A program made the position numbers and the translations under genes. From assembly GCA_044892525.1 (NCBI GenBank), contig CM097885.1, positions 36,272,001 through 36,336,000 of the forward strand: a stretch of DNA of 64,000 bases, in the 5' to 3' direction. A model generated the notes under the pieces. That model was not told the origin of the DNA, searched no databases, and was given only the letters and a program-made list of their open reading frames with translations. Shown here piece by piece: positions 1,621 to 56,200 of the stretch (position 1 is the stretch's first letter; every line of letters starts with the position of its first letter). The DNA is from Schmidtea polychroa (lineage: Eukaryota).

Positions 1621-2264
1621 ATTATTAGTAGTATGTAGTAAGGACTCCAGGACACTTTCAAGGTCATCCCAATGTCCAGATCAAATATAAGTCAATCGAA
1701 TCATTTTATTTATTTATTTTTTTTTTATTTATCTAATTACTTCTATTTAATTTTTTTTTTTTTAAATTTATTAATTAATTATTTTATTATGTTTTTTGTT
1801 TTAATTAATTACTTTAGTTAATTTTCAATTTATTACATTTAATTAATTAATTATTTATTAATATTTTATTTTAATTACTTACTTTATTTAATTGATTTTT
1901 TTTTTAATTTTTTTTTATTTATTTATTTATTTTTTTTTATTTATTATTATTATTATTTTTTTTTTATTGTTATTATTTTACATTTACATTTAATATATTC
2001 TAACAAGAGTGTAAATTGTAACTATAATATTTCAATTTGAATAAAGTTTTAATAATCATAAAATAAAGCTGTGTTAATTTAAAATAAAATGGGCATTAAT
2101 TTTTCAAAACAAAGCAAAGTTTTTCATGATAAATAATAATTCTTACTTAAAACTAATTATCTAAATTAATTGGACAAATGAATTATTAAATGATAAAACA
2201 TATTTTAATTAACGAAGTCAAATAATTCACAATATATATTTTATTATTCACATAAATTTAATTG

Positions 2265-4979
2265 TTAAAGTGCTTGTTTCGATTTGCATTCATTTCTAGA
2301 CATAGCAGTTGCAATATGCATTTGACGAATCTTATAGTGACCGTAGGCATAGCTTTCATTAGAATTGAACCAATACCTTTTATCATCCAAACATTGGAGA
2401 GCTCGTTTTTCTGTAATGAAAGTATACAACTGATGATTAACACTTCCTATTCTCTTTTGTTGGATGCTCACTGTTCCACCATCAGTATACACTTTTTTAT
2501 AGGCTTCATGGGTGATATTAGAATTTGTAAGACTTATTCCTTTGGCTTTTAGAGTGTTTTTATCGCCTTGGAGTGAGTAGCACTTGGGTCGAAGAAACAC
2601 CCATTCTTTATATTGATTTCCTTTATTCTCATCCTTAACTTTCCCGATTACCGAACAAATTTTATCTGAGAACAATGGATCAGTCACTGGATAATTTGAA
2701 GTATCTAGGAGCCCATCGGCAATCATTTTTGGATACAGTTGTAAGCGTAAATCAACATTTTTACACTCTAAAAAGAAGGAATCTGTGTCACCAGCTACGA
2801 TATTAATTTGACAATTGAATTCTTCTCTATAACTCTGTAGTTCTTTATATTGAAACTGGTACATGCGAAGTTTAGATAAATCAAGTACGGTTTGTCCAAT
2901 ATACATTGGTCTATCTAAACACACCATTTCCTTATCAAGTATAACAGCAATGAGATCATCCGCAATCTTGATGCTACGACGAAACATAGGATGACTACAA
3001 TAAGTTATCAATCTTTTGCTTTTGTTGCATAATCTCAAATTTATACGTTTCTTCAAGTTTTCCACAGTTTTACCGTATAAACTGTTGTTCTTTAACTTAT
3101 AATAATCTCGCTGAAACGAATCCGTACTAGCTGCTCTCATTTTGGTATTGTAATCAATATATCCTTTGAAAATAGCCACTTGCTTGAATTCTACAGCACG
3201 ATTAACTTTTGTGACTTTTGCGCCGTAACTCAGCCACTCTGTCAAAACTCTACCATTAACTACATAGTTTTTCTTAGGCTCATGAGTTAACAACAGCTTT
3301 TCAACTTTACTACCAGGCGGATAACAAAGCTCAGGAGCTATAGGTAAATCATCTAGTTTATCTTGTATACTATCAGGAATGACGATGTTAACCTCTAGAA
3401 CATATCCACGATCTCCATCAAACTCATCCCCATTTGCACATCTTTCAACAATACCGTTCATTTCAGTCTGATCATTTATCCATCTAAATTCACCAACAGG
3501 AAGTTTTTGCGACAGCGCCCATCCATATAAATTATTAACATCTAGGTATGACATTTGTGTTGATTCATCAGCTTCAACATGATGTTTGTTGATAAATGTC
3601 ATTCCACCACGAATACCAGCTTCAAATAAACGGTAAAACTCTGGATCTTGAATAAGTTCTACCGGTTCAGGTAACTGTTTAATAGCTGATGCCCAACTTA
3701 ATCCGGGTATGGAAACAAACGATAGAGCCTCAAGTCCATCTTCGTCAAATGTTTTTTCTCTGAAAGCTTCAAAAACATCGGCCAACAGAAAAACATCCAG
3801 CTTGAGATATACTAGCATGTAATCTAGCAGTGTCTCACAGTTGTATTGTTGCCAGATTCGATTTGCATGTATATAATCTTCTTGACTAACTCCCTCCCAA
3901 ATCGGTGGTAATTCTGTTATTGACTGTAAAACATCCATTGATGTAGCCATATCATAAGGAAAAATAGTTTTACAAGTCATCATCTGCGATTCGAAAACAT
4001 CTGAGGTCAGTGGAAGACATGGTAAATTTTTTGATAAATTTGCCAAGCTGCTATTTAAAAATTGTAAAGAATCAATGAATCTAATTCTTCTGCCTTTCAA
4101 TGTCGCTGTAAGTGTGAGAAACTTTTCTGTTGATTGAGGAATAACATTTAAATTCCAATCGGGGAATTTTCCAATTGCATATTTTAATATATGATGAATG
4201 TCATATCCACGAAGATTATGAAATACAACAGGTAAAGACGGATTGATTCTTCTAGCCAAATTACAATCTTGACACGCTGCTCCGAGATATTGACCAGTAA
4301 AATGATCATGATCTCGAACAGGTATATTGATAATCTTTTTACAAAGGTAGCAATGAGTTTGAGTCGTGAATTCTTCCTGCTGTTCCCAAGTGAGTTCCAT
4401 CATTTCCTTTGATCCATTAATTTTATACCACGGATAAACTATGTCTGTAGCTATATCATCCAATGCTTGTATGAACTGAATGATACAGTTTTCCCCAACA
4501 AATGTTTCATTTCGGATCGGACAACCTTGATGAAGAAGCACAAATTCAGATGCAATCGGCTCATGTTTTTGGAAGTGTTTGTCATCTAGAGGTAATATCG
4601 ATTCAAAGTCCGCGTAGACAACAAACTGCTGTTTTATAGTTTTACTCCAGTCTTTAAATTCGATATATTTATTCTCTGGCATTGAGTATAGAGTCGTCCG
4701 CTCCACATTCTTCCTACAAAGACCTATATGTCTTTCAAAAGCAGGACGCTTTCGAAACCCATGAAGACATGTATGACACCATTGTGATTGGATTCTGACT
4801 CCTTCTACTCTATCTCTGTAATTCAGCAGTCGATCGAGATTGGTTACAGCCAAAAAATGATAATTTAATTCTAAAATTTAGTTAATATTTTTAATGATTA
4901 AAAGAAATATTACCTTCTTCAATCAATAGGAGATATATCTGAGATCCCGTCGAAGTACTTCTATATACCAAGTCAACGA
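2265..4979 (-). CDS. Protein-primed family B DNA polymerase (Polinton type), left-arm copy; 5'-truncated; exons 4979-4914 and 4870-2265
   Basis: 862-aa ORF with exonuclease motifs YADFES, FHNLRGYD and YLKLDV, an endonuclease VII-like insert (CYLC...DHDH.TG...AC..CN), and polymerase motifs DVNNLYG, KLKNNSLYGK, GDTDS, PKCYS and KAKGI. A 43-nt GT-AG intron (4913-4871) joins upstream YLLLIEE to ELNYHFLAV in frame. Confidence 0.93.
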
Positions 4980-5032
4980 ATATACAATGTAAATAAACTT
5001 ACAAGATACATGTATTATGTCTGATAATTTAG

Positions 5033-7308
5033 TTAAAATCTGCTTATATAGCATACTGGCCGTATTACATTATGATGACATACTTCGGGATAGAGAAAGA
5101 ACAACAAAATATAACTTAAGTGGTAATATATATATTTATAAATGTCATAAATCATTGAAATTTGTTTTTAAGACTTAAAATGGAAATTTGAATGGTTTCC
5201 GATGAAGTTGGTTAACATTTGCCAATTTGAAGCAATGAATCCAAATCTAGCGATCAATGTTCTCAAATATAATAAAGATCCAATTAAACAAAAAACTAAT
5301 GATATTTTCAAGAATCCGATCGTTGACTTGGTATATAGAAGTACTTCGACGGGATCTCAGATATATCTCCTATTGATTGAATTTATTAAAATATGCAATT
5401 GGAAAATTCCCCGATTGGAATTTAAATGTTATTCCTCAATCAACAGAAAAGTTTCTCACACTTACAGCGACATTGAAAGGCAGAAGAATTAGATTCATTG
5501 ATTCTTTACAATTTTTAAATAGCAGCTTGACAAATTTATCAAAAAATTTACCATGTCTTCCACTGACCTCAGATGTTTTCGAATCGCAGATGATGACTTG
5601 TAAAACTATTTTTCCTTATGATATGGCTACATCAATGGATGTTTTACAGTCAATAACAGAATTACCACCGATTTGGGAGGGAGTTAGTCAAGAAGATTAT
5701 ATACATGCAAATCGAATCTGGCAACAATACAACTGTGAGACACTGCTAGATTACATGCTAGTATATCTCAAGCTGGATGTTTTTCTGTTGGCCGATGTTT
5801 TTGAAGCTTTCAGAGAAAAAACATTTGACGAAGATGGACTTGAGGCTCTATCGTTTGTTTCCATACCCGGATTAAGTTGGGCATCAGCTATTAAACAGTT
5901 ACCTGAACCGGTAGAACTTATTCAAGATCCAGAGTTTTACCGTTTATTTGAAGCTGGTATTCGTGGTGGAATGACATTTATCAACAAACATCATGTTGAA
6001 GCTGATGAATCAACACAAATGTCATACCTAGATGTTAATAATTTATATGGATGGGCGCTGTCGCAAAAACTTCCTGTTGGTGAATTTAGATGGATAAATG
6101 ATCAGACTGAAATGAACGGTATTGTTGAAAGATGTGCAAATGGGGATGAGTTTGATGGAGATCGTGGATATGTTCTAGAGGTTAACATCGTCATTCCTGA
6201 TAGTATACAAGATAAACTAGATGATTTACCTATAGCTCCTGAGCTTTGTTATCCGCCTGGTAGTAAAGTTGAAAAGCTGTTGTTAACTCATGAGCCTAAG
6301 AAAAACTATGTAGTTAATGGTAGAGTTTTGACAGAGTGGCTGAGTTACGGCGCAAAAGTCACAAAAGTTAATCGTGCTGTAGAATTCAAGCAAGTGGCTA
6401 TTTTCAAAGGATATATTGATTACAATACCAAAATGAGAGCAGCTAGTACGGATTCGTTTCAGCGAGATTATTATAAGTTAAAGAACAACAGTTTATACGG
6501 TAAAACTGTGGAAAACTTGAAGAAACGTATAAATTTGAGATTATGCAACAAAAGCAAAAGATTGATAACTTATTGTAGTCATCCTATGTTTCGTCGTAGC
6601 ATCAAGATTGCGGATGATCTCATTGCTGTTATACTTGATAAGGAAATGGTGTGTTTAGATAGACCAATGTATATTGGACAAACCGTACTTGATTTATCTA
6701 AACTTCGCATGTACCAGTTTCAATATAAAGAACTACAGAGTTATAGAGAAGAATTCAATTGTCAAATTAATATCGTAGCTGGTGACACAGATTCCTTCTT
6801 TTTAGAGTGTAAAAATGTTGATTTACGCTTACAACTGTATCCAAAAATGATTGCCGATGGGCTCCTAGATACTTCAAATTATCCAGTGACTGATCCATTG
6901 TTCTCAGATAAAATTTGTTCGGTAATCGGGAAAGTTAAGGATGAGAATAAAGGAAATCAATATAAAGAATGGGTGTTTCTTCGACCCAAGTGCTACTCAC
7001 TCCAAGGCGATAAAAACACTCTAAAAGCCAAAGGAATAAGTCTTACAAATTCTAATATCACCCATGAAGCCTATAAAAAAGTGTATACTGATGGTGGAAC
7101 AGTGAGCATCCAACAAAAGAGAATAGGAAGTGTTAATCATCAGTTGTATACTTTCATTACAGAAAAACGAGCTCTCCAATGTTTGGATGATAAAAGGTAT
7201 TGGTTCAATTCTAATGAAAGCTATGCCTACGGTCACTATAAGATTCGTCAAATGCATATTGCAACTGCTATGTCTAGAAATGAATGCAAATCGAAACAAG
7301 CACTTTAA
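5033..7308 (+). pseudogene. Protein-primed family B DNA polymerase, right-arm inverted copy with internal deletion of about 730 bp and a frameshift
   Basis: 5384-7308 mirrors 4189-2265, and the translations are identical except one A>T. Upstream 5041-5381 encodes N-terminal pPolB-like sequence (CLYSILAVLH...FPMKLVNICQFEAMNPNLAINV...YLLLIE) with a 50-nt GT-AG intron at 5123-5172. Sequence equivalent to 4190-4917 (Zn finger, exo I, endo VII insert, exo II) is missing. Confidence 0.9.
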
Positions 7309-8123
7309 CAATTAAATTTATGTGAATAATAAAATATATATTGTGAATTATTTGACTTCGTTAATTAAAATATGTTTTATCATTTAATAATTCATTTGTC
7401 CAATTAATTTAGATAATTAGTTTTAAGTAAGAATTATTATTTATCATGAAAAACTTTGCTTTGTTTTGAAAAATTAATGCCCATTTTATTTTAAATTAAC
7501 ACAGCTTTATTTTATGATGATTAAAACTTTATTCAAATTGAAATATTATAGTTACAATTTACACTCTTGTTAGAATATATTAAATGTAAATGTAAAATAA
7601 TAACAATAAAAAAAATAAAGAAATAAATAAAGAAATAAATAAAAAAAAAATAATAATAATAATAATAAATAAAAAAAAAAAAATTAAATTAAAAAAAAAT
7701 TTTAAAGAAAAAATAATAATAATAATAATAATAATTAGTTTAATAATTAATTAAAAAAAAATCAATTAAATAACGTAAGTAATTAAAATAAAATATTAAT
7801 AAATAATTAATTAATTAAATGTAATATATTGAAAATTAACTAAAGTAATTAATTAAAACAAAAAACATAATAAAATAATTAATTATTAAATTAAAAAAAA
7901 AATTAAATAGAATTAAATAAATTTAAAAAAAAAATAAATAAAATATTTCGATTGACCTATATTTGATCTTGATATTCCATGACCTTGAAAGTGCGCTGGA
8001 GTCCTTACTACATACTACTATTATTCTTATATTTTCAAGTTGGCAGATTTTTCGTATGCGCTATTTTTCTCTTAACTTTGTTGATTGAAACTTCTTGCGC
8101 TCCTTTGATTTATTATATATGTT

Positions 8124-12103: not shown

Positions 12104-18402
<6,299 letters not shown>

Positions 18403-19049: not shown

Positions 19050-20790
19050 GGTCGCTTAGTGGTGTGACATTTTATTTTTAAATGTGTTATGGGTAATTAT
19101 AGATGTTAAATTGACTCCATCCTAAACGCCTTCATGAATATTGTACTTTAGACCACCTGTGTAGCCAGGGCAACGACCATGTTGGTATTGTACACAATGG
19201 TTGAAAATCAATGAGCAAGTGAGTTCCATTGCTAAAACTACTCCTCATTGTAATTTCCGTTCGGACTGCCGATGAAAATTCTTACGTCATTATTCATTGT
19301 CTATTTCTGTTCTTGGATCATTGACATGTCTTCATTTAACTATGGTTCTCATTTCTGAATATTTTCTATAGTTCTCTTCAAAAAATGTTTGTGCAAGGAT
19401 CCGCCTTAATTTTCCGTCCTATTTATGAAGATTTAACTTATCTTCCAAAAGATTTGAGCACGGATCAGCCCTTATTTCCAAATTAATAAATGTGGTTCCT
19501 CACTTCCTATAAAATTTAAGCAGGGGTCTGCCTGTATCTCTAATTCTGCCCTATTTGACATCTTTATCCTTAGTAGATTCTATAAGATTACCCAAACTGA
19601 ACCTTATCTACCTACAACCGATCTTAGTTTCTTTGTCACTACTTCTAACTAAATAATATTCATAAAGGTAATGGTGACGGACTCGTTCTATGCTATCTAT
19701 ATTTAAAACAAGGCTCCAAACTGTCAAAAACGACTCTATGTCCTCCAATTGACTTTATCTCTAACTATACCCCATCAAAAGATATGTCAAACTGGTTAGT
19801 ATCTGCTGTTCATCGGCATGAGTGACTACGGTTCACAAACGCATTCCAATCTGGGAGCATCTATAAATCAGTAAAATATTCATAAAAATCAAAAATAATA
19901 ACATTCATGTTGATCGTAAGTATTTCTCAAATTCAAAAAAACAAAACACAAAAAATTAACTAAACTAAATTAAATGTAAAGTTTTTTTAAACTATGACAT
20001 TACATTAGTTTACATAAAATTCCCAAATTTCAATTCAAATCACCGCGATGGCATGAACCGAAAACAGAGAGCGTCTAGCAATGTCTGACAAAATAAAGTT
20101 GATTTCAAGTTAAAACTAGTTGTTTAATTGAATTTTCAATCAGTATTTACACTTATTTTGACTGTGCATTCATGTATTCTCTGCCTTTAGATCCAATCAG
20201 AATGCAATAAATTTTTATTTACTTTTGCATGCATGCAAGAGAGTGTGTAATTATTTATTTTTACTATAACTAATTTAATTAATCAAATATTTTTAATTTT
20301 TAATAATTTTTACGATTTAGTTTTATAAATTTTATAATTTAAATATTTTTAGTTAGTTTTATTTTAGTTTTCATTGATTTAAACAACTTAGTTTTATAAA
20401 TTTTATAATTTACATAATTACTACTTTTATTTTAATTTTTTATTATTTAATCAGTTTACTGGATATATTATTTTCAATTTTCAATTTATTTATTTAAAAC
20501 ATTTTCATATCATTAATTAATTTATTACCGATTATTTTATGTATTATTTTTTTATTTACTAGTTGTTAGATTTTTCGAATGCGATATTTTTCCTAACCGT
20601 GTTGGTGATTGCAACTTCTTGCGTTCCTTTATTTTATTATTCAGTTTTATTTAGCCTCAATGTATTATGCATTTTATTTTGTATTATTTGGTGTATGACC
20701 ATGAATTTTAATTCAACTTGTTGCGGTTTTTATGTTATGTATTTTCGATTCATTAAAAAAAACTCACCAATTTTAGCCCAACAGAACCCA
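19050..20790. repeat. Unclassified long interspersed repeat (copy 2)
   Basis: Direct homology to 309-1620, 8026-8123 and 9188-9280. Represents the empty site for the Polinton and solo-LTR insertions. Confidence 0.75.
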
Positions 20791-21619
20791 ATGCAATCAT
20801 CTTCAGAAATGCTTGTCATATTATACATAATTGCCCGTATTAACTTTTCATTTTCATATTTACGTTTGATTAGAGCTCGCTCATTGTATGTTACTCTAAG
20901 AATGCATTTGCTTGATGTTGGCATTAAATATTTTTTGTTTCAGGTATATCTAAAATGATTTTAATATAAAATTAAATTGATTAAGTTAAGTTGAAAAAGG
21001 ATTAAATCAAGTTTTAAACCCGGTATTATTACTTTTAAAGATAAGAATATTTTTGATTTAAAAATGTTTTAACATAATTTTAAACGAAATTTTTCAAATA
21101 TAAATGAATAATGTTATACTTTTGTAAGACGTTTCGATTATAATTTGATATTTTTTGGATAGTACTTTTGGCTGGATATACGGATATCTTATCTCTGTGC
21201 GTAGTTATGTTTTACAATACCGCAGATGTAGTATTATAGACTACAGTAGAAGGACTTTAGCTGGGAAATTGTTCTATTCAAATAATTCTATTCACAACAT
21301 TCTATTAGCTTCTGTTTTTAATTCGTTTCCATGTTTCTTCACGAATCTTCCTTGTATTATGTCTTTGTAAGTCTTTTTACTGGATATATCCTGTATACAT
21401 CTTACCGCATTGGCAGGTTTAACGACTCTGTTTATTTTATCTATCATTTTTACTATTTCTTTATTCTTCTCTGTGGTGTTCTTCTTTATCTTTAACATAG
21501 CATTTTTTAAGTTTTAATCAATTATTTCAAAACTTGTTTGTTAATTTACGACAATGTTTCTCTGTTGATTTCTTAAGATATTATAGTAGTTTTTAATTAC
21601 AAATACATTGGGAATAAAT

Positions 21620-24600
21620 AAAGCAAGTATAACAAAATCAAGAAACGCAAGAAGTTGCAATCACATACACAGTTAAGAGAAATATCACATTCGAAAAATC
21701 TGCCAACAAGGAAATAAAATAATAATAAATAAAATAATTGATAATAAATTAATTAATAATATGAAAAGAAATTTTTAGAAGGATTATTGATCGTATTTAC
21801 CTACAAAATACCATAATCGAATTAATTAGGGATGTTATGGCTTGTATTTACACACTAAGAAGCTATGGCAATGAGCGTATACTTTAAGAAAAGGAAAAGG
21901 AAAAGGAAAAGGAAAAGGAAAAGGAAAAGGAAAAGGAAAATTTATTTAAAAAATTAAATGAAATAAAATAAAGAAATAAATAAATTGAAACTAAAGATTT
22001 CTATTAACATGGATAAAATAATAAAATTTAAAATAAAATTAGTTAAAAATTATTTAGATTATAAAATTTATAAAATTAAATTGTTAAAACTAATAAAAAT
22101 TAAATAAATTGATTCATTAAATCAATTGGATTAAAACAATTTTCGGTGTCGTTGTAACCTAATCTCAATTTTCGGTCTATGCCATTGTGTTAAGCTTAAA
22201 TTGGATTTGGTAATTTTATGTAATGTTATGAGTTAATAAAACTTTATATGCAATTTAGTTTAGTTAATTTTTTTTCTTTTGTTTTTTTAATCGGATGATT
22301 TTAAGTTTTAAATTTTGAGGAATATTTACAGTTTGTATGAACGTTATTTTATTCGATTTTATTTGGGAGTTAGTGCAAATAGATTTTGAAAGTGTTCCAT
22401 TGATGCTAAGTCGGATGCTGGATAGCTCTACGAACTTGGTTGAGTGGATCCCTTCGGATGACCACCTCCGACAGGGTTCGTCACTGCACCTTTTTATGAA
22501 TTTTACTGAGTTAGGAGCGATAATATAGAAAGGTTAGATCGTTTATAAGTATAAAAGGTTCAGTTTGGGGTAATGTTATTGAATCACGAGGAAATTTGAA
22601 TCAGTTTGGCACAGAGTTAGAAATACAGGCAGATACCTGCTCAAAATAATTGAGGAATAAGTCGAATTTCATCTAATATTGTCGGAGGTATAGAACAACA
22701 TTTAATTACCGGGAAATAGAGGCGGATCCCTGCTCAAAATTTTGAAAATAACCTTGGAAAACATCCAGAAAAGAGGACCACAATTAAATGAATAAAGGGC
22801 AATGATCTAACACAAGAATTGGTAGAAAACAATAACGTAAGACCTTCTATCAGCAGTCCAGAATCCAAAAATGAAAATACAATGAGGAGTAATTTAGGAA
22901 ATGTAGATCACCTGCTCATTAATTTTTAACCATTGTATACAGCACCAACATGGTCGTCACCATGGCTACACAGATGGTCTAAACTTTAGACTCTAAAGTA
23001 TAATACAGTAAAACCTCTACTTAAGACCACCTCCCTAAAGAGACCACCTCTAGTTAAGACCTCTATTTCTTCGGAACCAAATTTACACAGTAGTTTACTG
23101 GGACAAATAACCCTCCATAATAGGACCACCCCTCTCGTTAAGACCACTTTTCGTAAAAACTATTTTTAGTTTAAATATTTTTTGTTTAAATATTTTTTGT
23201 TTAAATATTTTTTTAAAATTAAAATGGGAGTTAAAAAAACGAGAAAGGAGCTTACATTGAGCGAGAAGATGGATGTTATTAAATCTTCTGAGCGAGGAGA
23301 AGGACAGAGACTTATTGCAAGACGATTTTCTTGTAGTAAAACGCAAGTCCACAATATCATTGTTAACAAAGAAGAAATAAAGGAGCTTTGGAACAATAAT
23401 GCAAATAAAAAACTAAAACGACTAACAAATAAGCAGTTTAAACTTATCAATGAGTATGTTCTAGAGTGGTATGAAAACAAAGTGCTGCGAGGCTTTCCTA
23501 TTAACGGAGAGTTGTTGAAAGCATCAGCTAAGAAGATAGCTATTAATCTAAACAACAATGTGTTTAAAGCTAGAAATGGCTAGTTGGAGAAATTCCTCAA
23601 GAGAAACAATATTACTTTGAGGGTTTTATCAGGTGAATCTGCTTCCGTAGAACCATCTGTGCTATCAGATTGGTTTTCGAAAATCCCAGATGTTATTACA
23701 AACTATGAAAAGAAAGATATCTACAACATAGATGAGACTGCTTTATTCTATAAAATGTTGCCAGGGAAATCTTTGGGTCGTGCCAGAGAAAAAACATATG
23801 GAAGTAAAAAATCCAAACAAAGAATAACAATCATGCTTTGTGTTAATATGTTGGGAGAAAAAGAGCCACCGGTCATAATTAATAAATCTTTAAGGCCTAG
23901 GTGCCTCAAAAACATCGATTTCAAGGAATGGTGTACCAAGTTCAATGAGAAGCTTTTAAAAGAAAAGAGAAGAATCCTGATAGTATTGGATAATGCAACG
24001 TGTCATCCTAAAATGGATTTAAGCAATATAAAATTTGCATTTCTTCCTGCAAATACTACCAGCAAATCTCAGCCTTTAGACCAAGGTATAATTAGATCTT
24101 TCAAGCTGGAATATCAAAAAAGAATGCTCTCTTCATTATTGTCGTTTTATGAAACAACTGCCAATGTAGAAGAGTTGTTGAAAAAAATCAATCTCTCTAA
24201 TGTTGTTGAGTTTGTAAAGGAGTCTTGGAATGCTGTTAAGCCGTCAACAGTTGAGAGCTGTTTTAAAAAATGTTGGTTCTGCTCGGATATCACGGTTAAA
24301 CCAGATATTATAACTGAGATCGAACAAGACGTAACAGATTTAGCTAAGAAGCTTGATTTCGACTTTGACCTTAGTGAGCTTGACATTTCTCTTGAACAAA
24401 ACTGTTTTGAGAGTGACTGGGAAGAAAAACTGATTTCTTCTTACACTAGTTTGGATGATGCATCAAGTGAGGTTTCTGAACCAAACGAAGAAGAATCTGA
24501 TTTACCAAAAATTGATTTAAAAACATCTTTATCTTATATTCAGCAGATTAAGAATCTTGGAATGGAACTGGGTGACAATAAATTAGTTGACATAATGTTT

Positions 24601-24900
24601 CAAGCTGAACAAAAGTTGACGAATATGATAGTTTTTGATAACAGTGAAGCCAAATCGAAGAGACAAACAACATTAGATGAGTTTTTATAATAAAATCTTC
24701 AATTTAAGTCTAGTTTTCTTTATAAAAATAAAATCCTCTCTAATAGGACCACCTCTAGTAAAGACCACTTTTGGTCCGGAACCAAGGGTGGTCCTATTAG
24801 AGAGGTTTCACTGTAGTCATGAAGGCGTTTAGGAATGGTTCGATTCAAAATTCATAAATACCTTTAACACATTTAAAAAATGACACCTCTAAGCGATCAA
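21620..24900. repeat. Unclassified long interspersed repeat (copy 3, inverted), interrupted by a Tigger at 23006-24813
   Basis: 21631-21760 is the reverse complement of about 20520-20640. 22830-23003 plus 24816-24860 is the reverse complement of about 350-545. Includes a (GGAAAA)n tract at 21887-21938. Confidence 0.75.
23006..24813 (+). mobile_element. Tigger/pogo DNA transposon with disrupted transposase (23224-24690)
   Basis: TIRs CAGTAAAACCTCT / AGAGGTTTCACTG with TA duplication (23004-5, 24814-5). HTH-psq/CENP-B and DDE_1 motifs (YNIDET, LDNATCH, QPLDQG). In-frame TAG at 23581 replaces the conserved W, and the usual segment before EWC appears deleted. Confidence 0.93.
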
Positions 24901-25480: not shown

Positions 25481-28400
25481 ATGAATGACAAGCTAAAGGA
25501 TATCATAAATTCAAATGATATTCATGATTCGTGCAAGTCAATGCCTTATGGAACAGCAGGTTATAGAATGGATTCAAAATATTTAAACGGGTTTACTGTT
25601 CGAATGAGCCTTCTTGCCGCAATGAGATCTATGTATAAAGTAATTTAAATTTTTTTTTAAAGTAATAGATATGGATTAGGCTAAAACTGTCGGAATTATG
25701 ATTACTGCTTCTCATAATCCCGAACATGATAATGGCATTAAGTTAGTTGATCCAGATGGTGAAATGCTTACAATGGAATGGGAATTTATTGCCATGGAAT
25801 TTGTTGAATGGATTTCGAACGACTTTTGCAATAAATTCATTAACAAATGTTCAGGACTAAAAATAGATTTAAACAGTAAATGTAATTTCTAAAAACTTAA
25901 TATTTTTAATTTAAACGATTACTCATTATATAAATATTTATCTAAGTTTTTCTGTCACATTTAGATTAAATCCGAAAATATTTTAGAAATTGATCAATAA
26001 GTATTATATAATGACTACATCCAACCGGATTTTTAAAAAGGAGACAAAAAATTAGTTTTGCTGATAATTTAATAAACTTTACATAAATTATTTCATTATT
26101 CCTTTAATTTGTTCTATTTGAAAGTAATTTATATTCATAATGGAAATTATATTTATCCTATTATATTTAATATTATAAAACCAAATGACTTTTTGTCATA
26201 ATAAATTGTGACATTCGGTGGTAAATCCTAAAATTTCTTTCCTAATTTACTAGCAATCTGTTTTTTATTAACATTTTTACTGCAATTTATAACTACGCAA
26301 CTCCTGAATTATCAAAGGATTCATCAATCAATGAATGAGAAAAATGCATTATTTTTACTAGATAACATTATGACTTCCACTTCCACTCAATGCTTTGAGT
26401 ATGTATTAGAGTAGAGCCGCGTTAAGCGGGGATGCATGGAACTCGGGTGGCACGTATGGGGTAGCAGGCGGGAAATTGTTTAGTGAATAAATACCAATTG
26501 TCCAATCTTTATTACGTTCATAATGTTTTAAACCTAGTGATTATTAATTAAATAGGTAAAACTTGTAAGTATATTATTTATTTATGTACGTAAATAAATA
26601 GTACACAAAATACATCTTTCGTAATAATGTTAAGATATTATTTATTGCTCGTATAAAGATATAAGACGATGGTTATTATTATTTTACGTTAAATATTAAA
26701 TTTAAACTGATAAATTTTAGCCTATTAGGAGCGGCAAACAACTTCACGGGGAAGATTCACTTGTTAGTGATTGTGCACAAAATCTGATAACCTTGAATAT
26801 ATATTTGTATTCCATATATCTGTACACACTGTTGACCTTTCATTTACTTTATCTATAATATATCTTGAGCTTCTTATCGCATAATTACGAGATCATGCCA
26901 CAAGAAATCTTAATTCCTTCTTTTCTCTACCTTTTGTTCCTAATTACCCAATATATTTAACCTTTATAAAGATGGGTTTCGTCTACTTATACAGTATAGC
27001 CTGGACCATCTAATCTATATATCATAAAACATCAACCACCTTAAAGGTGACTCGTACTTAATAATTCGGTGGCGGAACAAAATGGTACGGACAAAATGGT
27101 ATGGACAAAATGAATAAAAAAATAACGAACTAAACTGATAGAATAACCAATAAAAATGCATTTTGATAAATACCATGTCACTTTAGATAGGCTAATTGTT
27201 ATTAGAAAATTAGCTCAATTGGAAGTTTAAAATGTTAACAACCTGCATATTTAAGACAACGGCCAAATATAAGTTATTTTTAATATTCTTTATTGCAAAA
27301 AATCGTAATCAACAAAATCAATCTACCGTGAATAATAATAATAATAATACACATATTTGCTAACGCGTCAGTGTAAACCGGGCTAACGTAAGAGAAAGCC
27401 TGGTGAACTTCAGTCACATGAACTGAATCTGAGGCGCATGAAGCAGATGAACTAAAGCAGATGAAGCCCATGCTTGAACACAGAATTGGAATCAGATTAG
27501 CAGGCAAAATTTGAAAGCCTTTTTGAAAGCCTTTTTGAAAGCCTTTTTATAGGGACTGTAAGATTATTGAAGCGTACAACAGACTGTCACATCAAGAAGA
27601 AAGAATACGTCCGCATAAATGAAGCATGTGTAGTCGATTATAACAACCGAGATCTGGTTACATATTTGGGAGATATTGCGCGTGTGCTCAATATAAATGT
27701 TGTCTGAGAGACACTGTATTGCAAGTGTTTACTGTTTAAGCATAAACGAAACATTGTAACTGAGTAGGCCTATAGTCTTAGATGTTTGACACTAGTTTTT
27801 TTTAATTTATTTATTCATTATAATTTATATATTGTCTAGATTTTTGGATTGCTTTTAATATTATTAAACGAAAGACGGAAAAACTCAGACATTTATGCTA
27901 AATAAAAACAACTTACTTATGTGTTAGGGCAATAATTAATTAAATGCATTTGAAAAAAAAATAAACTTATTATTCTATTTAAACAAAGTTAAATCTATAT
28001 AATTTAATACTAGTACCATTTTGTCCTAGAACCAATAATTCCCCTTGTTTTTTGGATATAAGTCAATGTATCTAAATATAATTTTAAAAAATTCTTACCT
28101 GTCTCAATAGAAATCTAATAAATTTTTAAATATTTTATGATTTAAATCTCTATTTCTTATTGTAAGAACATGTGAATCGATTTGTATAATCACATCCGGG
28201 TTTAGGTTTTCAATTATTTTAATAAAATTATTTACACTTAACAATGACTTACAATGCCATTTCGATGGTATTAACTGCTTAATAGTGACATGCAAATATT
28301 TATATTTTCTAAACTCCTTTAGAATGAAGCTGCTCTGAAATCCTTTGTAAACGTGCAGAATAATATTTAAAAATCAGATTTATTACAAAAATATAATTAT

Positions 28401-38476: not shown

Positions 38477-40971
38477 TAGAGCCTCGAGTTGCGTTGTCCC
38501 AACTTGCGTCCTTTCGAGTTGCGCCAAAAAATTTTCGATACCATAATTTTGAGTTGCGTTGCTAATTTTCGAAATGCGTCGAAAAAAAGTTTTAAAATAA
38601 AATTTAATCAAAAAATAGCATAACGTCTATATTCAAAAATTAAACTTTAAACCGAAACTAGAATGCCATGATTTATTTTTAAATGCAGCTGCAAATGAAA
38701 TAATTTTTTATTGTGTATTTATTAGTATAAAAGTCTAGTTCTTAGTTGTTTGCATAACTTATAACTCATAACGTTTAAGTGTTTCTTGCTTTTTTAATAA
38801 TAATTGTTTTAAATTCTAAAAACTCAATTACAATATATATACATTTCTCAAAGGTATTACATTTTGTTTATTGTTTTTTATTATTTTTTTGGTTTGTAAT
38901 TGATTTTTTGAAATATTTTTTATTGCCCTATTGTAGAATAGAATTATGAATCGTAAACGATCGTCAGATTAAAATGGTGAAAAATCTACGAAAAGAAATA
39001 AAAAAGTAATATCTTTGGACGTAAAACATGATATTTTACAACGTTTCCAAGCGGGAGAAAAAGCGGTTTTCATTGGCAGAGCTCTCGGGCTAGCTCCAAC
39101 GACAATAAGAACTATCTGCAATCGCGATGCAAAACAAATCAAAACATTATATGAAGCAGCAACAGATTCCCAATTAAAAAGTACTGTTATAAATCGAAAT
39201 GCATTAATAGTTAAAATGGAATCTCTACTTTTAATTTGGATTGAACATCAAACTCAAAAAAGTATGCCGCCGAGCAAAATGGTTATTCAAGCCAAAGCCA
39301 AATCTTTTTACGATGATCTGCAAGAAAAACTTCCAATATCGAATAAAGCAATTTATGAACAATTTAACGCTAGTGGTGGATGGTTTGAGCGTTTTAAATT
39401 TCGCGGAAATCTGCACAACATTTGTTTGAAAGGTGAGGCAGCTAGTGCAGATCTCACAGCAGCAAATGATTTTAATAAAATATTGAAGGCTGTTATACAG
39501 GAAGGTGGCTACAGTTCTAAACAGGTTTAATATTGATGAAACAGGTTTGTTTTGGAAACGTCTGCCGAAAAGAACCTATATAGCAAAAACAGAATCTTCT
39601 GCACCTGGTTTTAAAGTAAGTAAAGATCGCCTAACTATACTTCTTGGAGGCAATGCCAATGGTGACTTCAAACTAAAACCATTGTTAGTTTATCAGACTG
39701 AGAATCCTAGAGCTCTAAAAGGTGTTGATAAAAGAAATCTTCCTGTGCATTGGCGATCTAATAAAAAAGCTTGGGTCACTGTTTCTTTGTTTGTTGATTG
39801 GTTGGTCAAATGCGCCATTCCTGAGTTCAAAAACTATTGCAAACGGGAAAATTTAACTTTTAAAATATTGGTACTACTGGATAATGCACCGGGACATCCA
39901 AAATATATAGATGATCTATCAGATAATGTAAAATTTTTATTTATGCCTCCAAACACAACTTCACTTATTCAACCAATGGATCAAGGAGTAATCTCAAATT
40001 TTAAGTCATACTATATTCGCCGGACATTTAAACAGCTACTGCATGCTGCCGATGCAAATGAAGAAACTTCTATGGCTGTATTTTGGAAAAACTACAATGT
40101 ATTGAAAGCTGTTAAAAATATTGGTGATTCTTGGGCAGAAGTAAAATCCTCTTGTATGAATGGTGTATGGCAAAAAATATGGCCAGAATGTACAGCAACT
40201 TTTACGGAAGTTGACGATGTGCCATTAGTTCGGGCAGAAATAGTTAACTTAGCCCAAGAAGCTCATTTCGAAGGATTGGACGAGGCCGATTTCGATGAAA
40301 TTTTAAATGTAGAAGAGGATTTTAATGTTAGTACCGCAGATTTAATTGAAATGGCTCAAAATATTTATGAGAATGACGACAATTCCGTAGAAGTACCAGA
40401 AGTGAAACAATTAACAACAAAGGATATGGGGAAAGCAATTAAATTAATATCTGAGGCATTAGAAATATTTGTTGCAGAAGATCCAGATACTGATCAAAGT
40501 ATAAAGGTTACTCAAGCTGTAGAGGCCTCCATCAGCTGTTATAAAAATATTTATTTGGATAAAAAACAAAAGGCAGTTCAAATAACTCTGAATAATTTTA
40601 TAATAAAACAACCAAAAGAAAAGCAAACGCCAAGTCCTGAACCAACTTATGAATAAGAATCTGAATAAATTCTATAAATTTATGTTGCTTCATTATTTTA
40701 CATTATTTTAAAATTCTATTAATGTTTGCATTAGTTTTTGGTTTAATAAAACTTATTAAATAATAGTTAATCTATTCATACCTATTTTTTATTTAAATAT
40801 GTAGCAATATAACTAATTTTTATTTAAAAACATGGATTTCAGATTTTATCGGAACCTATTATATAAAAACAAATACATATGTCTACAAAATTAAAATTCG
40901 AATTGCGTTGTTTCGAGATGCGTCGCGATTTATTGGAACGCATTAACGACGCAACTCGAGGCTCTTGTATA

Positions 40972-50218: not shown

Positions 50219-53200
50219 ATGTCGTTTGATAAAGAAGAATTAATCCAACAGTTAAATCATTATGTTATCGGTGAAGAAGACAAAAACTTTATTTATGGAA
50301 CAGCTGGATTTCGAACTGCAGCAACTCGATTAGTTGGAATTGCATTTCGAATAGGTATTATGGCTGTTCTAAGATCTATGCAAGAGGTTTATCGTTACGA
50401 TTGAAATATGAGATAAAATGTATTCAGATGGGTATGGTAATTGGTATCATGGTTACTGCTTCACACAATGAGGCTAGTGATAATGGGTTAAAGGTTGTTG
50501 ATAAAGGCGGCGAAATGTTGGATGAGTCATGGGAAGAAATAGCAGTGCAATTTATTCGAACTCATGTTGACGACGTTCCAGATTTTATAAATGCAATTTG
50601 TATTAATAGAAATATTGATATTTCCATTAGAGGTAATAAATTTTTATTTATTTTGATTCTTTTATCTATTTTACATTTTTTAATTGCATATAGTGATTGT
50701 AAAAAACTTTCTCGCAGAGCTCCATATTAGTGATAATTTTGGTGATGTTAACGTGTTCTTTTAAATTGCTAATATTCTCGATAATTGTGAACTTTCAAGT
50801 CAATCATAAATTTTTTTTAATTTCAATAAAATAAACATTTACACTATGAAATTTTTCTAATTTTGTATCATTATTTATGATCAAAAGTCAACAATCAACA
50901 AAAACTGAAATCTTCAAATCGGTTAGAAAATTTTCTCGAGGAATTTATTCTACAGTTCATCCGAGTATTTCTGTCCGATCTTTTTGTATTTTCATTCTAA
51001 TCGCTGTTTGCATATTTGTCGGAAAAAATAATAATCTGGCAAATGATGTTTATTAAACCTTTAAGTAAAAATAAAAATACTTTTCTGGTGAAATCCGAAA
51101 TTCATTGTAAAATGTATAATGCAAGGTCTTTTTCATATAATTCCACTTTGAAACAATTACAATTGTTTAAACTCAATCTTGAATGTTCTCGAACTCGTTT
51201 ACAAGGACGGTGGCAATTTTGAAATCGTTTTAACATTGACACTTTAAATATTTTAGGGAGTTTACATGTTCGACTGGAGGGGAATGGTGGATTTTTTTGA
51301 AGGCGCTGAACTTTTTGGTGTGTCTGGTAGTGTTGTCGGTTGTTCCATGTCTTCTAATATGTCTTCGTTTATGTTATAGTCTTTTGTAATATGGCTGTTT
51401 GGGATTTCATCGTATTCAAGGGTGCAAAACGCTGGTTTAAATCTGTAAAGGTTGATCATGACGTGGTTGTTGTCAATCTCGAGTTTCGCTGTATTTTTGT
51501 ACAGCTCTATGATGCGAAACGGACCTTTGAATCTGGGTTTGAGGTTTGAAGAGTCGATAGTTCTCATCCATTGTGAGTTGCTGAGGAAAGGAACTGTGGT
51601 ATATATGGTTTGTACGACGTGGAATATGTGAACGACGGATTTGTATCTAAGCTCAAAAAATTCGTACGTGTTAGATTGATCTCGTCTAATGGTGAGTTAT
51701 TGTAAAGATGTTCGTTGGGCATGAAAGTGTTGTATCCAAACAAAGGTTTTGAAGGAGACACGTCGCTTGAATGATTGGGTTGTTGTGCCATCCTAGTAAA
51801 ACAAATGATAGGTGTGTTATCTGACGGTGTGCCCTGTTTGATGGGTCTTTCATGGAGAAGCAGTGGATAAGAGGTTTGTGATCAGTGAAGACTGTGAATT
51901 GTCTACCTTCTAAAATGTGACATCTAGAAAAATAGCAAGTAATTCTCTGTTGAATGCAATGTACTTTGACTCTGCCTATGAAAATTTTCTAGAGAAAAAT
52001 TTTATTTGGAGTAAAATTTTGTCTTTAATTTGATGAAGGACTGCGGCGGCGGCGATATTTGATGCATCTGTTGTGAGGGTGAATAGGCGGTCATGACTCG
52101 GGTAGTGAAGAGTTGTAATCTTGGATAGAGCGTCTTTGACTGTGTTGAATGTGTCACGTGTTGTGTCGGACTAGTTAATGGTGGAGTTTTTCTTTCCTTT
52201 GTTCAGTGCTGAAAGAGGTGCCGTTATGTGTAATGCATTTTTTATGAATCTGTGACAGAAATTGACGATGCCCAAAAAGCTACGTAGTTGTGTTAAGGTG
52301 GCGAGTAATGGACAGCTGCGGATTACGTCAAGTTGTTCAGGAAAAGGTTCGCAACCCATAGATGAGAGTATGTGACCAAGGAATCTGACGTGTTTTTGAA
52401 AGAATTTGCATTTATTTACATTGATCTGTAAGCTATAACGGTTCAATATGTCAAGAACAGTGTGTAGGTCTTTGTTGTGGGTGTCGCGGTAGGGTGATGC
52501 TACGATTATATCGTCGAAGTATGCAAAAGCGTGGTGGACGTCCCGGAAAATTGTGTCTATGAAGAGTTTTAAAGACTGAGTTGCATTCCTTAAGCTGAAA
52601 GGCATGAACATGTATTCGAAATTTCCAAATGGTGTGGTTACAGCGGTTTTGGGAACGTCATCGATATGGACAGGAAATTGATTGTAGGCTTTCGAGAGGT
52701 CAATAGTTGAAAATATGGTTGATTGTGAAAGGCGGGTTATTAAATCTTTGATAAGTGGCATTGGGTATGTATCGTGAACGGTCACTTGATTGAGTTGACG
52801 TTAGTCGCCGCACGGACTGAGGCAATCGTCTTTCTTGATGATTACATGTATTGGTGAATTCGGCTTTTACTGCGTCGAGTTTGATGGGTGGGAGGGGTCT
52901 GGCTCGGTTGTGTTGTGGTATCCACGGTAATGTCGGAATATAATGAATCGATAGAGTTGTAGGTGGTATGATAGGGGATTTTGTGATGAGGTTTGGGTAT
53001 GTGGTTGAGATTGTCTCGATTATTTCGTACATTGGCTCTGAATTAGGTGAGTGTTGGATATCTGACATGTGAATATTGCGTTCCATCGTGTCAGTAGATT
53101 GGATAAAGCTAAGTTGGGTCGTTGGAGATGTCTGCGTAGAGATTGATGTTCTGTTTGGTGATACATTTATGGATATAGGATTGAGATGTCGGTTTATAGT

Positions 53201-56200
53201 GAATAGTCGTCTATTTCTGCAGTCTATCATGAGGAATTGTTCGCTGAGGAAATCGGAGCCTAGTATTGGAAGAATTGTGTCTGCTATGTGGAAGTTGTGA
53301 GTGAAAGTTCAGTTCAGTGTCGGTAGCTTGAATAAAAGTTTTTTTATTCCCAAAAATTGTATCGGTGTGTCGTTGGCTGCCAATACGGTGAAAGGAGATT
53401 TGAGATCTGGGGTTATAGTGGTTAGGAATTTTCGAAAATGATGATCCGGAGTTGACGAGGAAGTGAATTGATGAGCTCGAATTAAATGTTGCTTCAACGG
53501 TAAGGATGTTGTTGATCGCGAAGGCACCGCCTGAAAATCCAGGGTTTACAGACGGTGAAGTTAGTTTTAGGGGGATTGAAGTAGTCTTTGTCGTATTATG
53601 GTTTGTTTGAGTGACGATTCACAAAAGTGCAGCCTGGAAGGCATTTTTGTTCGTGTAACCCGAAGAGGTTGTGGTAAATGCAGGTGGGAATAAATTGATA
53701 TTTTTATGACAGAAAAGTTAAAACTCGTTGCAGAACTATCTGATCCTGCATGGTTATGGGATCTAGCCTTTTTAACAGATATAACCGAACATCTCAATAT
53801 CCTCAATTTAAAATTGCAAGGCAAAGGTAAACTTATACATGAACTATTTATTGATGTCAAATCTTTCAGATCAAGATTGAAATTTTTTAAAAGGCAATTT
53901 CGACAAAATAATTTCACACATTTTCAATCTTGTGAATATTTATGGAATAATGGATCAAAAGATAAGAATAGTTTTTCTATTAATAGAAGTATCGACAATA
54001 TTGCATTGCTTCAAAATGAATTTAACAAAAGATTTTCTGATTTCTTTTGGAATGAAACAATATTTACTTTGTTCCAAAATCCTTTTGAAGTAAACGTGGA
54101 TGACATGGATCCCAATTTACAATTAGAATTAATTGATTTGCAATCAAACGATACAGTGAAATCACTCTTTAAAATTGAAAACATAAGCACATTTTATTCA
54201 CTTTTGCTGGAAAATACTTTCAGCAATATTAAAAATTTTCCCATGAAAATAATTTCAATATTTGGAAGTACCTATATCTGCGAGCAAGCCTTTTCACGAA
54301 TGAAATATATAAAATCAAAATTACGATCAAGACTGACGGATGACCATTTGAAGGATTTTTTAAAAATAAGCGTATCTAATTTCAAAGCAAATATAAATAA
54401 TTTCATTGAAAGATCAAACAATCAGGCTCATTGTTCACATTAATTTTTTTTAATAATAATATATGTCTTAACTTTTTTTTGTAGTTTTTTATGTGCGAAT
54501 ATTTTAAATAAAACATAATTTTTCTTAAATTGATTTATATTTCTTTATAATATAACAACGGTGGGCAAATGCGGCTCTTGGAGCCGCATGCGGCTCTTCG
54601 TTGAGTAAACTGCGGCTCATTGATAATTGAATTCTTGATAATCGAATTCGATTTTTTATTTTGAAATTTTTCACTAAATGTTTTGAGAAAAAATTTTTTG
54701 TTGCAATTGTATTTTCATAAATGTCAAAACTTAACGAAACATTGTTTTTCACATTTTACTGCTTTTTAAAATTATTTTGTAGTAGGCGGCGCTTTGTTAT
54801 AACAACGAGAGAGAAGCATCAAAAATAAATTTAGTGAATTTTGATTGGTTATTATTTTGTTTGTTCAAGATTGCGGTCGTTTGTATATTTTAGTATAGTT
54901 TTCTATTCGTGTTTTTTGAAAAATTTGGTAAGAAGATTTTTTTATGAAGCATTTTAAAATTTTAAACTAATTCAAATTAAATTAATGTCTTTTATTTATT
55001 TTGTTTAAATTTCAGCCATATAGTTATTTAAATTTATTATTATAATGACATCAGAAAACATCAAAAAACGAAAATACAGACAAGAAAATAGAACTTTTCA
55101 AGAAGAATGGACAGAAAAGTTTTTTTATTGACAATAATGGTAAATCGTTGTGTCTTATTTGTAAAGGTACAATTTCCAACTACAAAGTAACCAATTTACG
55201 TCGACACTATGAAGTAAGTCATCCACACTTATCAATTCAATATCCACTCAATTCAAACTTGCGGACAGAAAAACTTAAGTCATTGCAATCAGGGCTTCAA
55301 GCCCAACAAGGACTATTATCTACTTTTAGTCGAGAAGATGACAGTGCCAACGAAGCTAGTTTTTTGATAGCTTGGAATATAGCTCGTGCTAAACGTCCAT
55401 ATGGAAAAGGTGAATTTATTAAGAGAAACTTGGAAGAAGTGATTAAAGTTTTGGATCCGGACAACTCAAAACTACATAAATTAATCTCACGTATTCCTAT
55501 TTCACGTCGTACAACTGAGCGTCGAATTGGCCAAATTAGCGAAAATGTTGAAAATAATTTGATGTGTGATTTAAAAAATTGTACAGCATTCAGTTTAGCT
55601 CTCGACGAGTCTACTGACATTCAGGATGTTCCACAATTAGCCGTTTTTGTCTACATTTGCATTTTTTGTGAACCCATTTATTTGTGATATTATTGAAGAT
55701 GGATTTCCAATTTCTGAAGTAATACTTGTTAAAAAAGCGGTTGGGGAATTGGAGTTATTAGATATGAAAGAGGACCAGGCTTTGCAAATGCACCATAAAT
55801 CTACTTCTATAGTTGAATTTTGGAAACTCGTACCAGAGGCAAAATATCCACACTTAAAACAAGCTGCTTGCCGTCTAATTTCAATTTTTGGTACAACATA
55901 TTGTTGTGAATCTTTGTACTCCACAATGAAGTTCGTAAATTCGAAATATCGTTCACAGTTGACCAATCAGCATCTTACAGAATTGCTGCGAACAGCTTTA
56001 ACAAAGTATACACCAAATTTCAAAGATTTGACCAAAAGTCTTCGTTAATTCAAGAAATTTTATTACTTTTTATTAATGGATTTTTATGTTTGTTACTTAA
56101 TGTTTGAAATAATTATTTTGTTTTTTTTTAATAGCGTTTTAGTCTCTTTAATCAAATTAATGAAATAAAAAAAAATATGTACTTTACTATGGTGGCTCTG

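Follow-up and report, generated by a model that had tools for sequence, protein, structure and literature searches.

Fold-back Polinton-type elements with a gene for a protein-primed DNA polymerase of family B (pPolB) in each arm form a family in the genome of Schmidtea polychroa, and one copy lies in the 64,000-nt stretch analyzed here (assembly GCA_044892525.1, contig CM097885.1, positions 36,272,001 to 36,336,000; hereafter the window). Two short segments of its polymerase gene had been taken for spliceosomal introns in an earlier reading of the letters (the original prediction). It is highly probable that these segments are GT-AG introns common to all members of the family and that the polyprotein would require their splicing. 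The host spliceosome likely removes them, and the Polinton lineage likely acquired them once it had settled in a host whose introns are short and AT-rich.

Structure of the Polymerase Gene

Both AT-rich GT-AG segments were found where they had been predicted, namely intron A on the minus strand (12% GC) and intron B on the plus strand (14% GC) of the window (Table 1). As had been stated, neither length is a multiple of three (remainders of 1 and 2, respectively), and their size is like that of the GT-AG introns in the PGM3-like host genes of the window, which are 40, 46 and 55 nt long (25640–25679, 60128–60173 and 63562–63616).

In other copies of the element, one pPolB gene contains six short AT-rich GT-AG segments (introns F to A in gene order), of which A and B are the last two. 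The copy L050 was used as a coordinate reference only, for the gene structure. The internal exons are 228, 57, 444, 162 and 213 nt long. Because all of them are open and are multiples of three, all six introns are in phase 1; the chance of such a six-fold same-phase pattern is 0.004 under equal phase frequencies. Intron F is predicted to lie inside the start codon. Intron E contains an in-frame stop, and the stretch from intron E through the exon to intron D could also be skipped as a single unit.

The original prediction had claimed that removing the segments restores the frame. This was borne out in L050, where the gene becomes colinear with uninterrupted homologues across A, B and C, but within the window the two introns do not belong to one colinear gene. 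When the uninterrupted homologue P0003 was aligned to L050, residue 287 ended at the donor of intron B and residue 288 resumed at its acceptor in another frame, and the next frame change was at intron A, near residue 360. Frame changes at B and A were found for 13 uninterrupted homologues aligned to L050. In the ten alignments listed over intron C of this copy, a gap of 18 residues corresponds to the 54 nt of the intron. An intron-size insertion was found in none of the scorable aligned homologues, 68 of which were scored at A and 59 at C. In addition, AT-rich GT..AG windows of 40–60 nt numbered 11 (overlapping) in the 1.4-kb N-terminal region, and the last exon (2.6 kb) had none. The intron-like segments are not due to chance.

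Conservation of the Introns

The genome assembly searched comprised 781 Mb in 1012 contigs. The flanks of intron A with a gap of 38–48 nt gave 674 matches genome-wide, and their joined form (gap of 0–6 nt) gave none. One donor allele of intron B had 357 genomic matches; no genomic match was found for the joined form of B, searched with both flank alleles, or for that of C. The comparison with other genomic copies, which had been proposed as a check, revealed that the introns are common to all of them and that the assembly contains no intron-less DNA copy.

For the scoring of arms, 48 loci were screened; 46 arms from 28 loci with both anchors were scored and the rest were dropped. The scored arms are related and do not represent independent events. 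GT..AG was kept at 276 of 276 intron ends, as expected of U2-type spliceosomal introns, while the lengths and the interior sequence drift. The length departed from the reference by a number not divisible by three in 38 of 276 intron cases versus 1 of 230 internal-exon cases. Intron B occurs as two unlike alleles at one site. The 43-nt form of intron A holds a stop, as does the 42-nt form, which has the same opening codons. Exons 2–6 contained 16 synonymous and 18 non-synonymous variants common to at least three arms, with a ratio of non-synonymous to synonymous polymorphism (pN/pS) of 0.28 (binomial P 3e-4). Judged by these variants, the exons flanking the introns are under purifying selection.

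Junction Contigs

All data from sequencing runs were in the form of assembled contigs, and the type of run X1 was only guessed to be RNA. Both of the spliced junctions that the original prediction had named were present in X1, in one contig each. The first contig (depth 14) omits exactly intron B with its GT..AG ends and has 29 nt on the short side of the joint, and the second joins the last 15 nt of exon 6 straight to exon 7 at the junction of intron A. Neither junction form exists in the assembly. In run X7 (type unknown, 6530 contigs), none of the 15 joints listed, out of 23, falls on an intron. Run X6 contributed a single aligned contig.

A 1053-nt contig of run X8, which is labelled as another organism, was about 99% identical to L050:605–1660, introns included. 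Species transfer, a mixed sample or contamination could account for it.

Predicted Domains of the Putative Spliced Product

The model of the relative P0002 (predicted local distance difference test, pLDDT, 87.8) matched the phi29 polymerase (Z 20.8), and its residues 84–193 matched the PolIV little-finger fold (4ir1, Z 8.3). According to the accessible part of PMC11161782, this fold is linked to terminal proteins and pPolB has a terminal protein–vOTU–exonuclease–palm layout. In the model of another relative, L140, OTU folds were among the top 25 matches of the following domain (Z 4.3–6.6, root-mean-square deviation 3.2–4.9). The best Foldseek matches of a relative were bidnavirus-like and adintovirus PolBs. 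The OTU-like Cys and His were invariant in 68 of 68 homologues and were also found in exons 5 and 7 of the palindromic family. Pfam gave no match in the four N-terminal exons tested.

Mapping through the homologue alignment assigned exon 4 to the terminal-protein part, intron C to its border with the protease, the Cys to exon 5 and the His to the opening of exon 7. Introns B and A split the predicted OTU-protease domain between its catalytic Cys and His. Because of this split, annotation by open reading frame (ORF) misses the protease along with the zinc-finger and terminal-protein portions. The first Met of the last exon's frame is residue 66, where an ORF would be taken to start, so the original prediction was right that ORF-based annotation misses the true N-terminus. 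Splicing would be needed for the full zinc-finger/terminal-protein/OTU-protease/polymerase polyprotein, and the retention of intron A, B, D, E or F would lead to a stop or a frame shift ahead of the polymerase.

Several observations weigh against the interpretation of the segments as spliced introns of such a gene. Each junction is represented by a single contig of a run whose type was guessed, and the B joint, with less than 30 nt on its short side, is not among the 15 of 23 joints listed in a second X1 alignment. Most X1 contigs are unspliced, with a depth of 113.6 across intron D, X2 also had unspliced contigs spanning D, and X4 had such contigs spanning E and D; no junction contig for C, D, E or F was found in the runs examined. 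Introns D, E and F sit in a poorly aligned linker, where their borders are predicted, and the 48- and 54-nt forms of intron C are in frame and have no stop. The Z-scores of the OTU matches (<8) are middling; Foldseek gave the same trend but no match at E ≤ 0.001. The folds were predicted for the relatives P0002 and L140, not for the protein of the palindromic family itself. As for the intron-retaining contigs, they may represent pre-mRNA, antisense transcripts or DNA.

Characterization of the Element Family

The end motif of the element had 690 exact matches in the genome. Among 21 regions fetched as inverted match pairs or end pairs, all 21 had polymerase matches on both strands. Integrase, ATPase, protease and capsid genes were found inside none of 22 copies (these regions and the window copy) in searches whose positive controls worked; one integrase match was positioned beyond the element end. 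The arms are 4.6–6.5 kb long and each contains a whole polymerase gene; in the first ten copies they measure 4.6–6.4 kb and are 97.5–99.96% identical. A 6-bp target duplication was present in 17 of the 19 copies with both ends located and in the window copy, and the duplications are distinct. The 20 unpaired matches were mostly truncated or nested copies. Classified on its sequence, the family is a young, polymerase-only, palindromic and non-autonomous Polinton derivative.

Its integrase would be supplied in trans by complete Polintons of the same genome. Two families of complete Polintons were found there: family 2 has integrase, A32 ATPase and C5 protease genes (Pfam) and putative capsid genes, and family 3 has double jelly-roll capsid, integrase and ATPase genes. 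A partner segment with integrase and capsid genes under the same ends was considered and rejected, as 11 of 11 extra end pairs were again polymerase palindromes. The locus L060, in which a polymerase arm abuts a capsid-integrase module, was rejected as the autonomous parent, as the module's own polymerase is 27–30% identical and occurs in 7 of 10 other copies.

Some individual loci had further features. The palindrome centre resembles the subterminal repeats of families 2 and 3 (L049:5932–6440, L060:7673–8803), which is a possible helper trace. One palindromic copy (L130/L131) has a transposase-like insertion with a 225-aa frame at the matching position of each arm; this suggests copying of one arm from the other after the insertion. 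At L064:4993–7409, the right arm changes within the polymerase gene from the palindromic family to family 2, apparently as a chimera or a nested insertion. In L063/L073, a different inverted-repeat element with AT-hook-like and RING-like ORFs was found around a polymerase arm.

Relatives and Origin of the Introns

In a tree of the last-exon region (66 sequences), the palindromic family was sister (0.92) to a group containing the uninterrupted L140, P0002 and P0003 and was nested among full-length uninterrupted ORFs. Families 2 and 4, which lie in the same genome and are about 54% identical, are also continuous across A–C. The continuity of close relatives at A, B and C makes a gain of the introns on the lineage of the palindromic family likely. 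The tree supports the earlier claim of a gain of host-style mini-introns by a Polinton lineage; the carrier, however, is a polymerase-only palindromic derivative and not a complete Polinton, and the introns are six, not two.

Other introns were found in the relatives. The codon of the first zinc-finger Cys is interrupted by a common phase-1 intron in families 2 and 4, and the intron sequences are unrelated. In family 2 (L098–L117), this intron is 57–58 nt long in 10 of 10 loci, with one acceptor mutated; family 4 (L265) appears to have additional upstream mini-exons. The metagenome contig L138 (52% identical) contains four introns of 46–50 nt around 66-nt exons, all in phase 1 (L138:80–469). 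Its pPolB is sister to the uninterrupted P0030 and is continuous at A–C. Two of its intron-exon units are a tandem duplicate, each encoding a Q-T-G-G motif, and the phase pattern of L138 results from this duplication; duplication does not explain A, B and C, which are unlike in sequence. P0008, P0014, P0010, P0034 and other homologues begin near intron A or B and are either intron-split or cut by contig ends. Scans for related loci with P0001 gave no match, and the clade alignment gave distant loci only.

Alternatively, the introns could be ancient and the relatives could have lost them, or the uninterrupted relatives could represent cDNA of spliced transcripts from metatranscriptomes. The intron position common to families 2 and 4, with its unrelated sequences, implies that some pPolB introns are old, and several top homologues are on contigs barely longer than the gene. 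However, intergenic DNA and a further ORF lie upstream of the uninterrupted L140 gene, full-length homologues are also found on 10–19 kb contigs, the continuous families 2 and 4 are genomic, and many repeated losses would be needed on the tree. We consider this alternative improbable.

The origin of the spliced introns as introner copies (i.e., copies of an intron-making transposon) is marginally less probable again. Of 105 intron pairs, only the L138 tandem duplicate stood out (z 4.4), and no pair of the palindromic family (family 1) was above chance after 105 tests. The six introns are unlike, and no common target duplication was found in their flanks. In favour of an introner origin are the several gains in one gene of a young family, the faint likeness of intron A and the second B allele (z 1.9) and the precedent of dinoflagellate Polinton-like elements given in the available text of 10.1101/2025.03.18.643946.

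It is very unlikely that the segments represent decay in dead copies or neutral insertions of AT-rich sequence, with GT-AG occurring by chance and never spliced. Such an origin would fit the window copy, which is broken in both arms, and the mostly unspliced contigs of the runs guessed to be RNA, but it is largely refuted by the shared site in all 674 genomic arms with the insertion-free form absent, by the retention of GT..AG despite the interior drift, by the selection on the flanking exons and by the exact junction contigs. Finally, the six introns and the absence of integrase and capsid genes from 22 copies might point to a domesticated host gene with ordinary introns outside any mobile element, which is the least credible explanation and is refuted because target duplications lie at many unrelated sites, in line with the hundreds of end-motif matches and the nearly identical arms.

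Organization of the Window Copy

The fold-back build of the window copy was revealed by self-comparison, in which 1627–4192 is mirrored by 5381–8019. The frame 2265–4877 of the minus strand (870 codons) encodes a protein-primed B polymerase (PF03175, E 1.8e-30), and the catalytic polymerase motifs are present; a PF02945 match in the exon 7 frame (E 3e-4) was below the cut-off. The copy has a scrambled centre. Exon 7, intron A and 66 nt of exon 6 are retained in the left arm, which is followed by a displaced piece with the intron C donor and then, on the plus strand, by a part of exon 5, intron B and exon 6. In 10 of 10 compared elements of the family, the sequences 5044–5381 (+) and 4980–1699 (−) are consecutive stretches of one gene. 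Introns A and B are on opposite strands of the window because this copy is a scrambled fold-back with both polymerase genes broken. The full pPolB protein can be encoded by neither arm, and the copy is a dead, internally deleted passenger of the palindromic family.

Table 1. Positions of the element, its gene parts and its introns in the window and in the reference copy L050.
Feature	Window position	Strand	L050 position	Length range, nt	Description
Whole element	1627..8019	.			Fold-back Polinton-type copy, AGTAGT...ACTACT ends
Left target-site duplication	1621..1626	+			6 bp, ATTATT
Right target-site duplication	8020..8025	+			6 bp, ATTATT
pPolB last exon (7), left arm	2265..4870	-			OTU-like His, Endonuclease_7-like insert, exonuclease and polymerase motifs, stop
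Intron A	4871..4913	-	2046-2088	42-43	43 nt, GT-AG, phase 1, directly ahead of the invariant His
Exon 6, 3' part	4914..4979	-			Second copy of 5320-5381 and donor flank
Displaced piece	4986..5040	-			Exon 4 end (5040-5003) plus the initial 17 nt of intron C (5002-4986)
Exon 5, 3' part	5039..5122	+			OTU-like Cys motif, altered in the window copy
Intron B	5123..5172	+	1783-1832	41-107	50 nt, GT-AG, phase 1, within the OTU-like domain
Exon 6, almost whole	5173..5381	+			Enters the right arm out of frame, stop 5490-5492
Exon 7, 3' part, right-arm copy	5381..7308	+			Differs from the left arm at 2 of 1928 nt
Intron C			1567-1620	46-58	
Intron D			1082-1122	41	
Intron E			983-1024	41-45	
Intron F			708-754	47-51	

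Elsewhere in the window, short inverted-repeat elements resembling miniature inverted-repeat transposable elements were found at 14060–14938 and 20502–21767, the second of which resembles the DNA just right of the element end. The region 25547–64000 contains at least two tandem PGM3/AGM1-like genes with exons scattered among transposons; a protein search with the host gene gave two fungal PGM3 proteins as matches, at about 42%. The frames 23584–24690, 39487–40656, 52171–52800, 55049–55687 and 12104–12928 comprise two DDE_1 transposases, a reverse-transcriptase fragment, a SPIN-type zinc finger and a ZZ zinc finger.

Comparison with Known Systems

Like animal Polintons/Mavericks (adintovirus-like), the palindromic family has pPolB (PF03175), AGT...ACT ends, a 6-bp target duplication and terminal-protein-like and OTU-like N-terminal domains. 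Unlike in these elements, whose core genes are reported to be intronless in vertebrates and nematodes, its pPolB has six predicted introns; the family also differs in having no integrase, ATPase, protease or capsid gene, each arm holding the whole polymerase gene. Intact vertebrate Mavericks are without introns in the available text of PMC8097293, in agreement with Kapitonov and Jurka 2006. The accessible part of 10.1101/2022.07.12.499685 describes the core genes of nematode Mavericks as intronless and their cargo genes (wasp, krma) as intron-bearing. Introns travel in a Maverick in both cases, there in captured host genes and here in the replicase.

In human adenovirus E2B, a small upstream exon provides the start codon. 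The two systems are alike in that a protein-primed DNA polymerase is expressed via host nuclear splicing, although for the palindromic family this expression is putative. The adenovirus terminal protein precursor (pTP) and polymerase are expressed from spliced mRNAs, as stated in the accessible text of PMC11304566. However, the long adenovirus introns choose genes from one promoter, whereas in the palindromic family a single coding region, including a conserved domain, is interrupted by short introns of host size.

Dinoflagellate Polinton-like elements carry introners that were mostly gained after integration, according to the available part of 10.1101/2025.03.18.643946, and are similar in having spliceosomal introns within integrated elements. 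Their introns are copies of transposon families, whereas the six introns described here are dissimilar, fixed across hundreds of new insertions and all in phase 1. No spliceosomal introns in pPolB are reported in the accessible portions of 10.1101/2023.08.22.554363, PMC8502044, PMC11296320, PMC12220804, PMC6431247, PMC8532177 and 10.1101/2024.01.15.575659. The de-repression of Polintons in a planarian is reported in PMC8532177. Literature searches revealed no account of an intron-split animal Polinton polymerase or of a polymerase-only palindromic family, with the limit that Repbase entries, the 2006 paper and supplements could already record such exons.

Implications

In integrated palindromic copies, RNA polymerase II (Pol II) would transcribe the gene from the centre outward, and, as in the original prediction, we infer nuclear transcription and dependence on the spliceosome. 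The element presumably copies as DNA in a protein-primed manner; introns would then not be purged by reverse transcription, and each gain would be inherited. Splicing by a nuclear DNA element is not surprising in itself, as adenovirus and many DNA transposons illustrate. The introns support nuclear, Pol II-type expression for the palindromic lineage.

Recent intron gain is rarely caught beside close intron-free relatives. Here, at least three lineage-specific gains lie in or next to a conserved domain, hundreds of family copies serve as replicates, and the unexplained all-phase-1 pattern recurs in separate lineages. In addition, surveys that require intronless ORFs, or a polymerase together with an integrase, would call a whole active-looking family degraded or miss it, and they would truncate the terminal-protein and protease domains.

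The phase-1 gains tallied in the clade were six in the palindromic family, four in L138 and one common to two sister families. A bolder proposal, which we hold to be unlikely though worth stating, is that this pPolB clade gains short phase-1 introns repeatedly, that its symmetric exons make the host spliceosome a control and that the palindromic family is a spliceosome-gated replicase satellite borrowing integrase from complete Polintons. If this were true, intron retention would turn the polymerase off, and skipping exons 5–6 would give a frame-intact polymerase without the protease and with the terminal protein kept. In that event, the family would offer a tractable example of intron gain that is recent and follows an unexplained phase rule.

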